A DNA stretch of 64,000 nt from Chrysomallon squamiferum (taxonomy: Eukaryota > Animalia > Mollusca). The notes below the pieces were generated by a model that had not been told where the DNA came from, searched no databases, and saw only the letters and a program-made list of their open reading frames with translations. Of the stretch, positions 49,472-52,400 are shown piece by piece. The number at the start of each line of letters is the position of its first letter. Positions within the stretch are counted from its first letter, which is position 1. Location of the stretch: positions 31,000,001 through 31,064,000 of the forward strand of contig CM022679.1 of assembly GCA_012295275.1 (NCBI GenBank), in the 5' to 3' direction. A program made the position numbers and the translations under genes.

Positions 49472-52400
49472 ATGTTTGCGTTGAAACTGCAAATTATCCT
49501 GCTCTTCATTATTTTGGGATCAGTGCAGGTCGAATTAATGCCTGACAGGTAAGTTTCGTTTTCCCTTTTCCTGTTCAGTGCAGTTGAATGTGAGACGGGT
49601 GAATGAGTGCAAAATAAAATACTTTCTTTAGTGCTCTGGATTGTAGGTGTAATTAAATATATTTGTAATAATCTTAATCTATTCCAATACAAATACGTAT
49701 ATGGAATTATAAGAAATAAAACCTTTCATCTAAATAGGTAAAACGTTTCTTATTATATGGCTTTAATTATATACATGTAATTTTAATAGTATTTTTTAAT
49801 ATTATTATTATTACTACTATTACTTTCCTATATTTGTTATTATTATTATTAATTGTTTTGTATCACTAGTGACTTTTTTGCTATTTCATTTGCGTCTGAC
49901 TTACTCTACGTCACTATGAGAGTTTTTTACTTAAAATTGTTCGTAAGAATAAAACAAATATAAAGTAATTCTAGTTAAAGGAATATATTCATGTTAAGAA
50001 AACTATGAAGATGTAAAATGAAACTATGTAAGATAAATCGTAAAACTGAATACTGTTTTCTGCCACTTGAAGTCTAATAAATGAATTATTTAAACTCGGA
50101 GTTACAAAGTTTTTGATGATTTTGTAGCTGTCGTTAGTTCATCATTTAGCAATACAAATTCAGAGACCATCCTTGATAATATCCCTCAAAGTGTTCATAT
50201 TAATAGTCATACTTTTAGGGACCCAAACTAGTCATTAGAAATTTATTGATAACGTTACAGAAAAAAATATATATAATACAATGCAACACTATCGATAATC
50301 GAGTGTTTAAACGGAAGGTTCCGCATTAGAATGAACATTAATTAGGTTAGTAATGCAATATTTTGTTTTTGCATACATTCGGTATTAAAAAACAAAGCAA
50401 GATAGTTTCACTCTAGGCTGTCATTTTGAAGGTATAATATCATATCAAATAAAAAAAGCTATTTTTACTAACGTTTATACCCTTTGTCTTTCTTTTAATA
50501 CGCATATCCACTAATTACTATTTTTCTCTCTCTCTCTCTCTCTCTCTCTCTCTCTCTCTCTCTCTCTCTCTCTCTCTCTCTCTCTCTCTCTGCCTCTATC
50601 TCTGCTTCTCCTTCTGTGTGTGGATGACTCTCTGTATCTAGCTTTTTATGCCCTTCACATACAATCCAGAAATAACCAACTTCTCTCTCTCACAAATATA
50701 TACAATTTTTTCCAAATACACACACCTATAGAAAACAGATATTTTTATTATTCACCTGAGTGTTTATTTTCTTTGTACAGCAGCCCATTCACTCTGTGTG
50801 TATGACTCTCTGTATCTATAGCTTTTTATGCCCTTCACATACAATCCAGAAATAACCAACACTTCTCTCCTCACAAATATATACGGTTGTTCTCCCCATG
50901 TGGACACTCAGACACTCACAAATAGACACACACATAGAAACACAGATATTTTTGCAATTATTCACCTGAGTGTTTATCTTCTTTGTATAGAGCTGCCTTC
51001 TTGCCGTGAGTATCAATCTTTTAATCCCTAACATAAATCACGTCACCAATAAATCAGAACTATTAGATCAGCTTTTGTCTCTTTTCTTCCCACACCTATT
51101 ACGAACTGCACAGTACATATATCAATAACAACTTTTATTCTTCAACGTGTTATTTTTTTTACTTGTTAATATCACTCTTCTGTTGTTCATCTCTGTGTTT
51201 TTTGTGTGATTATGTGTGTCTGTTTTCTTTCTTAACAGAGCCTTGATAAATAATAGACTAAATACCATTTTAACAATAGTAGTGTAGATTAGGGTCCATC
51301 AAACATAGTAACAGCAAATGTAATACTATTTAAAATAAATAAACAAATAAATTAATAAATGATTACAATAATGATAATGGCGATCATGATAATAACAGTA
51401 ATTAAAAACAACAAGCGCAATACCAACAATAATATCCACAAATAGCTGTTAAATTAAAGTGTATTACTGTTTATAATACGAGAATAATTTATAATCTCTC
51501 TATTTTTTAGAATAAAATTGGAATATGTCCAGTGAGTTAATGTTAATTTATTCTGGATAAGATGGATCCAACTGAAAATAAACTGACTGATGATGCCAGT
51601 ATTCGAGTCATAATCATATAAATTAAACGTCCCACAATGTTGGTCTAGAGACAATGTGTGTATATTGCAGACATTGTCAAACGGAGGTAAAGTGTAAATT
51701 GTACCTGGTTAATGTTTCTATTCGATGAAATATTCTTATTTTTTATTTTCAGCGGGTGGGGGCGATCCGCTCCAAGTCGCAAGTAAGTCAAGTGTATTTT
51801 AAGTCCACATTAATAGGAAGAATCTATGATAAATATTTTGACACAGGCAGAAACCTGGGTATGCAGAAGAATGACTGTAATGATAAACAATAATCCATGA
51901 TTAAAAGTTCAAAACATTTTTGTAATAGGCAAATCTTTATATATATATTTACTACATTGTTTTCACTTTTATTTTACTTTTTTCTAGTACATTGACTAGT
52001 GAAGTAACTGGAAAAATATGAATTCAAATTTTTGAACTGCTAAATTATTCGCCTGATTCTTTTTTCTTTTTTAACAGGTCTCGCCATATTGACGAGTATG
52101 AGTGAGTATCATTCTATTAAAATCTAATATAAATGACATCACCAGTTACAGAGCACTATTATGTCACTTTGTGTCTTTGTTTTGGAACACCTATTAAGAA
52201 GTACAATAGATATATCGCAGCAGTAATTTGACTGGTTTTTTTTTCTTTCTTTCTAAAGAGAAAAGAGGACAACATGATATTTTGTCTATTTTTTATTATC
52301 ACTATTCTTTTCTTTATCTCCGGAAATGTTTTAAATGTCCTCATAAATAATTAAATTATTATTAAATAAATAAAGTTTCCGCATTACATTCGTACACACT

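Follow-up and report, generated by a model that had tools for sequence, protein, structure and literature searches.

Amidation of a peptide from a C-terminal Gly is established prohormone chemistry. In the AKH/RPCH family, the precursor carries a single peptide copy, which follows immediately on the signal peptide, begins with Gln (as pyroglutamate) and has, by consensus, Leu or Asn at positions 2-3 and Ser or Thr at position 5. AKH/RPCH peptides are amidated, with an aromatic residue (Phe) at position 4 and Trp at position 8 (PMC10730642). Known APGWamide and RGWamide precursors are described as containing many copies of (A/R/S/T/K)PGW tetrapeptides or of RGW, and two C-terminal Cys residues, which are separated by 20-30 residues and by a phase-0 intron (PMC8557429). 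Gastropod APGWamide precursors are described as containing only APGW tetrapeptides (PMC8557429; PMC5996578), and in bivalve xPGWamides the first residue varies (PMC5996578). For molluscs, a review counts five RFamide genes and gives the CCK/sulfakinin consensus as (D/E)Y(G/N)(L/F/I)GGGR(F/W)amide (PMC4208409).

There are also reports about secreted products that are diversified in other ways. The micro-exon genes (MEGs) of schistosomes are multi-copy, encode secreted products by very small symmetric exons and are apparently restricted to flatworms (PMC4350168). In exocrine hormone mimics, the signal and spacer regions are conserved and the peptide is variable, the opposite of what is described for endogenous signalling peptides (PMC10501145). 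Short mimics can arise de novo, and a love-dart allohormone has been described in land snails (PMC12962067).

The window analysed here, a stretch of 64,000 nucleotides, is eukaryotic, AT-rich (29.9% GC) and rich in microsatellites. A preliminary description had singled out in it two small exons encoding AAFLPGW-GR as an APGWamide/RPCH-like peptide. The point of interest is the microexon peptide family to which these exons belong, and not the APGW likeness. On balance we favour, with some confidence, a lineage-specific microexon gene that encodes a predicted secreted multi-peptide precursor, whose amidated products would be cut at GR and likely serve as exocrine ligands, the PGW ending being likely derived from RW.

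Architecture of the gene family

Five promoter/first-exon blocks with 92-96% identity (17009 minus, 19811 plus, 44187 minus, 49133 plus and 61411 plus) head five tandem genes, copies A-E, and the flagged peptide is module 1 of copy D. The features are as follows.

12860..17009, minus: copy A, with signal exon 16498-16416, two 24+30-nt modules ending PS-RR and PLFV-GRR, and terminal exon 12916 with stop and AATAAA
19811..24850, plus: copy B, with two signal exons (20331 and 20661), several decayed modules and terminal exon 24796
30720..44187, minus: copy C, with signal exon 43848-43766, seven 15-nt exons, four CAG tail exons (PF, RW, RF, RF), three GAG tail exons, and terminal exon 30771 with stop and AATAAA
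49133..49207, plus: TATA-like element and non-coding first exon of copy D, one of the five matching blocks; donor GTAAGT at 49208
49472..49548, plus: signal-peptide exon of copy D, coding part (Met, Lys, hydrophobic core); 77 nt, phase 2 end
50781..50795, plus: A0, an optional exon of 15 nt; its acceptor is strong, its GTGTGT donor weak and not ancestral
50991..51005, plus: A1, variable 15-nt microexon (AAFL and the first two Pro bases), identical in copy E at 63320-63334
51753..51782, plus: B1, 30-nt tail exon (G-W-G-R-S and spacer), 3 bases from the RW-type exon
52078..52101, plus: C1, 24-nt exon (spacer and acidic leader)
53071..53099, plus: decayed tail-type exon of 29 nt with GAG acceptor; shifts the frame if included, likely skipped
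53528..54650, plus: module 2 of copy D (53528-53542 with GTCAGT donor, 54296-54325, 54627-54650), predicted end YFPRW-GR
55840..57594, plus: module 3 of copy D (55840-55854, 56593-56622, 56921-56944 and the GAG-acceptor exon 57565-57594), predicted end YYLRP-GR
57871..58070, unstranded: assembly gap, with copy D lacking a visible terminal exon
61411..64000, plus: copy E, a near-identical duplicate of the start of copy D (signal exon 61750-61826, A0 63111-63125, A1 63320-63334), cut by the window end

Three exon types make up the modules behind the signal exon: A exons, which are variable and 15 nt long; B exons, the tail exons of 30 nt; and C exons, spacers of 15 or 24 nt. When the six signal exons are aligned, 18 of 30 columns are invariant; their signal function is read from composition and not from a predictor. 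Additional tail-type exons, one of them 29 nt long, have a GAG acceptor in 5/5 cases and are likely skipped. A terminal exon with stop and AATAAA is present in copies A, B and C, and copy B is likely degenerate. The exon table covers copies A, C, D and E, without the copy B exons and an acceptor-less remnant at 55250-55279. In it, each of the four signal exons has a phase 2 end, 34 of the 36 internal exons (15-30 nt) are multiples of 3, and GTAAGT or GTGAGT is found at 37 of 40 donors. All coding introns are in phase 2 in the models, and exon GC is 54-63%, as compared with 29.9% for the window. The exon architecture is not due to chance, because length, phase and donors are this regular and exon GC is this high.

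Gly-Arg-Ser is invariant in all seven 30-nt exons with a CAG acceptor (copies C and D). The two codons before it stand for RW in two exons, for RF in two or three, and for PF, RP or GW in one each, the first codon being Arg in 5/7. A tail-exon scaffold common to the PGW ending of copy D and the RF endings of copy C had been proposed earlier, and both are indeed carried by the same 30-nt GRS exon type. With A0 and the GAG exons skipped, the copy D model stays open over 94 codons, as far as the gap, and has three visible peptides of predicted ends FLPGW, YFPRW and YYLRP.

Copy E and the start of copy D are 97.0% identical over 2829 columns, with 21 mismatches. Together with their upstream DNA (about 46000-51700 and 58071-64000), copies D and E are near-identical on both sides of an N gap, which might be due to a tandem duplication in the recent past or to a haplotype that was not collapsed. 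Four identical 30-nt tail-type exons encoding RF-GR-S with a GAG acceptor (34314, 37610 and 40851, minus; 57565, plus) would be in frame if included; they are either recent copies of a dead exon or cases of rare GAG splicing. A chimeric 25-nt exon (31171-31147, minus) combines a spacer-type acceptor with a tail-type donor and has an in-frame stop before the terminal exon of copy C. Between copies B and C there is an orphan tail-type exon with intact splice sites (27083-27054, minus), near which a signal exon was not found. The predicted end PLFV before GRR in copy A (13994-13971 with 13186-13157, minus) resembles the molluscan PxFVamides.

The first module of copy D

At the DNA level, the reading AAFLPGWGR proposed in the preliminary description was reproduced at its exact coordinates: A1 (acceptor ...tatag, donor GTGAGT) and B1 (acceptor ...ttcag, donor GTAAGT) have canonical splice sites and are in frame with the ATG at 49472. 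The A1-B1 join alone is open in all 3 frames; the frame AAFLPGW-GR-S is chosen because the 77-nt signal exon from this ATG ends in phase 2, and the other two frames were rejected as out of frame with the ATG. The genomic reading AAFLPGW-GR-S of the exons that meet at 51005 and 51753 is confirmed, and splicing of the pair is predicted.

Skipping of the exon 50781-50795 (A0) had been expected to place an Arg directly before AAFLPGW, which holds true, with the split codon AG|A giving MPD-R; when A0 is included, the frame is kept and this Arg is lost. The A0 donor, which had been called weak, matches the consensus at 5/9 positions, as compared with 6-9 for the nine other donors scored, and is thus the weakest of ten. 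Read-through of A0 meets a stop at 50803-50805. Its GTGTGT donor is a by-product of a deletion or a local duplication, because from 50792 onwards A0 aligns with an intron element common to all A introns; the view of A0 as an ancestral exon that is intact and has a donor of its own was therefore rejected.

Release of the peptide

Cleavage at a single Arg is usually accompanied by a second basic residue 3-6 positions upstream (PMC8557429), and neither of the single Arg residues flanking AAFLPGW has one. Arg occupies P4 in 5/7 GRS sites; the nearest basic residue is at P10 in module 1 of copy D, and the first site of copy C has none within ten positions. The Arg before AAFL corresponds to Gln in copy C and to Arg in copy A. 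Thus the peptide can be preceded by Arg upon A0 skipping, as had been claimed, but its release as a free heptapeptide is doubtful because an upstream basic residue is absent at both single-Arg sites, the N-side Arg is not conserved and A0 must be skipped. Judging from these sites, the first product of copy D would most likely be N-terminally extended, with roughly 13-18 residues ending FLPGW-amide, or five more with A0. The GR after PGW, which has no basic residue at P4-P8, may be cut poorly. C-terminal amidation of the predicted PGW peptide is plausible, since GRS is kept in the first modules of copies C and D despite the absence of Arg at P4.

Origin of the PGW ending

Three bases separate B1 from the RW exons at 54296 and 38426, and the only one of them within the mature peptide is the C>G at position 2 of the exon, which replaces Arg by Gly; the nearest RF exon is six bases apart. 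The Pro of PGW is encoded by a split codon, which is common to module 2 of copy D (PRW). Because of this shared Pro and the Arg-to-Gly change, PGW can be read as PRW with one change, and the ending is likely a one-base derivative of the RW ending of the family. The earlier view that few substitutions change the apparent peptide family is thereby given numbers: one base from RW to GW and three from RF to GW. With the same C>G, the Arg favouring cleavage at a single Arg is lost as well. The 70 possible joins of ten A exons with seven B exons yield 30 different four-residue ends, with PGW in 2/70. Given this variety of ends, a likeness to one or another known family is to be expected, and that to APGW is probably due to convergence and not to kinship.

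Divergence of exons and introns

Among ten 15-nt A exons, 46.7% of sites differ, as compared with 7.9% in both flanking introns; the excess is found in 45/45 pairs, which are not independent. In B exons, 12.4% of sites differ, as compared with 7.3% and 3.0% in the flanking introns, with an excess in 20/21 pairs, and the GAG exons have no such excess (4/10 pairs). When each A exon is compared with the partner that has the closest introns, six of the ten are significantly more divergent than the introns and four are not; A1 of copy D differs at 7/15 sites, as against 20/239 in the introns (p=2.5e-4). Across copies, the mature region is more variable than the signal and spacer regions.

Pooled pN and pS are 0.46 and 0.44 for A exons, and 0.16 and 0.03 for B exons. 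On a minimum spanning tree, a non-synonymous excess is not significant either in A exons (2 synonymous and 10 non-synonymous changes, P=0.52) or in B exons (0 and 5, P=0.14). Positive selection was rejected as an established result, since the synonymous deficit is significant in neither exon type. As pN is close to pS in A exons and the test is non-significant, intron homogenisation could explain the contrast; the contrast between exons and introns could come from diversifying selection or from homogenisation of introns by conversion.

Comparison with known families

The label APGWamide/RPCH-like is adequate for the PGW-G-R end and for the F-x-P-G-W-Gly spacing, which is that of AKH/RPCH, but not as a statement of membership or kinship, the precursor architecture being different. 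As far as the sequences tell, the AAFLPGW peptide would belong by descent to neither the APGWamide nor the AKH/RPCH family, and it may work like a Wamide ligand. Copy D is similar to the APGWamide/RGWamide genes in that a secreted precursor of multiple peptides is predicted and that PGW is followed by Gly and a basic site, here a single Arg. On the other hand, there is one PGW in the 94 visible codons of copy D, preceded by Leu, and none in copies A or C; this single PGW, split over two microexons, stands among RF, RW, PF and RP peptides. The C-terminal Cys pair with its phase-0 intron, assessed on the complete paralogue models A and C as the 3' end of copy D lies in the gap, is absent from both, copy A having one Cys and copy C two inside peptide modules.

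The likeness to AKH/RPCH lies in the spacing. Counting from Arg26, Phe29 is at position 4 and Trp33 at position 8, followed by Gly, with amidation predicted, and the peptide is close to the signal peptide. In contrast to AKH/RPCH, position 1 is Arg (Leu if A0 is included) and there is no Gln, Ala stands at positions 2-3 and Leu at position 5, PGW is derived from PRW, and copy D has three peptides.

Copy C recalls another family. Its predicted ends YGYLRF and HGYLRF are near the spacing DYGxxRF of arthropod sulfakinins (PMC5996578), and by sequence this likeness appears at least as close as that of PGW in copy D. Upstream of these peptides (32718-32704 with 31951-31922; 35917-35903 with 35141-35112; minus), there are acidic and Tyr residues, a possible target of Tyr sulfation. 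As in molluscan CCK/SK, endings in RF alternate with endings in RW, but the GGGR core is absent from all family models, and none of the luqin and CCK/SK ends in the tables of two reports (PMC4208409; PMC5996578) matches the family peptides.

By architecture, the schistosome micro-exon genes are the nearest class. As in those genes, the coding region consists mostly of tiny symmetric exons behind a signal peptide (34/36 multiples of 3), and the family is multi-copy and apparently fast evolving; the schistosome products are described as spliced protein variants and not as multi-peptide amidated precursors (PMC4350168), and the likeness is one of architecture and implies no sequence relation. The hormone mimics (doppelgangers) of cone snails and the love-dart allohormone share with the present family a variable mature peptide that resembles neuropeptide ends, with conserved signal and spacer regions. 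They differ in that the present host is likely a non-venomous gastropod and its family is known from genes alone, and the microexon architecture does not figure in the accounts of those systems considered here (PMC10501145; PMC12962067).

Transcript, homologue and literature searches

When positions 50700-52500 were compared with three RNA runs, 4, 1 and 0 contigs were placed and all listed pieces were intronic, which weighs neither way on splicing. The joint 51005-51753, the absence of which from transcripts had been set as a refutation of the reading, is absent among the 6 joints listed over 50700-52500, and this too bears neither way. A fourth run (X1; 347 contigs) is likely DNA, because introns are covered. 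It has one joint, from 50984 to 51775 with 23 other letters between, which resembles the genomic chimeric exon 31171-31147, a variant of which appears in this run, and was rejected as a splice. At A1, the letters in the contigs counted from this run are different; because variants are dropped in contigs, this is uninformative on an absence of A1.

A search for longer proteins homologous to a 40-residue stretch with the signal exon of copy A retained 0/12 candidates, and a profile of six signal exons had 0 matches among 1.84 billion proteins at E 0.001. Pfam gave 0 matches for 2/2 signal exons, Rfam 0 and the Atlas no usable match, and two exact DNA patterns were found 0 and 0 times in metagenome contigs. 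These blanks weigh little, because the queries are short and hydrophobic. Among the papers found in the literature, none presents such a family in its title or the opening of its abstract, and the supplements of vent-snail genome papers could hold such genes.

Possible function and alternative explanations

In the explanation that we consider the most probable, symmetric phase-2 exons would be spliced behind the conserved signal exon and the product secreted; a convertase would then act on GR|S as well as on the (K/T)SR spacer, followed by carboxypeptidase trimming and amidation. New variants would arise as exon-intron modules are duplicated in tandem and as bases are replaced in the 15-nt exon and in codons 1 and 2 of the tail exon. 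An exocrine role is proposed because conserved signal and spacer regions with a variable peptide mark exocrine mimics (PMC10501145); by analogy, the products would most likely act between animals, as a mating allohormone or pheromone, rather than as a conserved neurotransmitter. Peltospirids fertilise internally, some of them with spermatophores (PMC4470333), and these parallels weakly suggest an exocrine or reproductive role.

A free AAFLPGW-amide, made by skipping of A0 and cleavage at both single Arg residues and selected as a mimic on APGWamide/RGWamide or AKH/RPCH-type receptors, is rather improbable. The DNA reading is real, the A0 donor is the weakest of the ten scored, and Phe4 and Trp8 counted from Arg26 agree with AKH/RPCH (PMC10730642); the first residue of bivalve xPGWamides varies (PMC5996578), and a short mimic could originate de novo (PMC12962067). 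The first peptide of copy C keeps GRS without Arg at P4, and the cleavage rule may accordingly not bind this family. Against these points, a basic residue 3-6 positions upstream is missing for both Arg residues, copy C has Gln in place of the N-side Arg, the peptide lacks an N-terminal Gln, and PGW is one base from PRW in a family whose 30 ends among 70 joins make a resemblance to some family expected. Alternatively, the family may be real and copy D or its module 1 decaying, with PGW a drifted RW without its own function. Copy D has several signs of decay, namely the weak A0 donor with a read-through stop, the 29-nt frameshifting tail-type exon, the GTCAGT donor and the remnant at 55250-55279; its terminal exon was not found, the C>G also removes a cleavage-favouring Arg, and copy B looks degenerate. 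Nevertheless, the copy D model without A0 and the GAG exons is open for its 94 codons to the gap, the gap accounts for the missing end, and copy D has an undamaged promoter and signal exon, which occur again in copy E together with an identical A1, so that we regard decay as unlikely.

The predicted peptides of modules 2 and 3 of copy D have acidic leaders and low net charge, whereas typical antimicrobial peptides are cationic. This speaks against Pro/Tyr-rich amidated peptides for host defence or symbiont control, diversified against microbes and without action on animal receptors, and so does the finding that GPCR ligands typically have aromatic-amide ends such as RF, RW and GW (PMC8557429). 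Such a function, to which we give little credence, would agree with the secreted interface proteins encoded by schistosome microexon genes (PMC4350168), with the multigenic families of linear antimicrobial peptides in mussels (PMC5577615) and with the endosymbionts described for related vent snails. A bolder and speculative extension, which we think has a small chance of being right, is a combinatorial library at the level of splicing: interchangeable 15-nt address exons and 30-nt message exons in one phase would be duplicated, mutated and mixed, and the amidated secreted mimics of RFamide/sulfakinin-like, RWamide, PGWamide and PxFVamide-like peptides would steer mates or other organisms. If this were true, a single base would have carried AAFLPGW-amide over from the RW type of ligand to the APGW/AKH type.

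If expressed, the family unites a schistosome-style microexon architecture with a prohormone-style output of multiple peptides, which have so far been described separately. Standard annotation would likely miss it, because its exons are 15-30 nt long and a protein homologue was not found. It also provides a natural set of variants in which one base alters the receptor-facing end of a peptide, bearing on the origin of new ligands and hormone mimics, and it cautions that three C-terminal residues are a poor ground for naming short amidated peptides.

Neighbouring features

An intronless gene for a rhodopsin-class GPCR (8511-9512, plus) lies about 3 kb from the peptide cluster. Its closest match is a Gigantopelta aegis protein with 66% identity over 97% of the query; the best 4 matches include 3 from Gigantopelta aegis, and those of Patella and Lottia have 33-35% identity. 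Judging from this one gene, the source is likely a neomphalid (peltospirid-like) gastropod. The matching Gigantopelta protein is annotated as histamine H2 receptor-like. A urocanate hydratase exon (Pfam Urocanase_N) is located at about 3865-4038 on the minus strand. A short ORF region at 25271-25600 (plus) contains a helix-turn-helix-like stretch, which by eye we take to resemble the N-terminus of a Tc1/mariner transposase.
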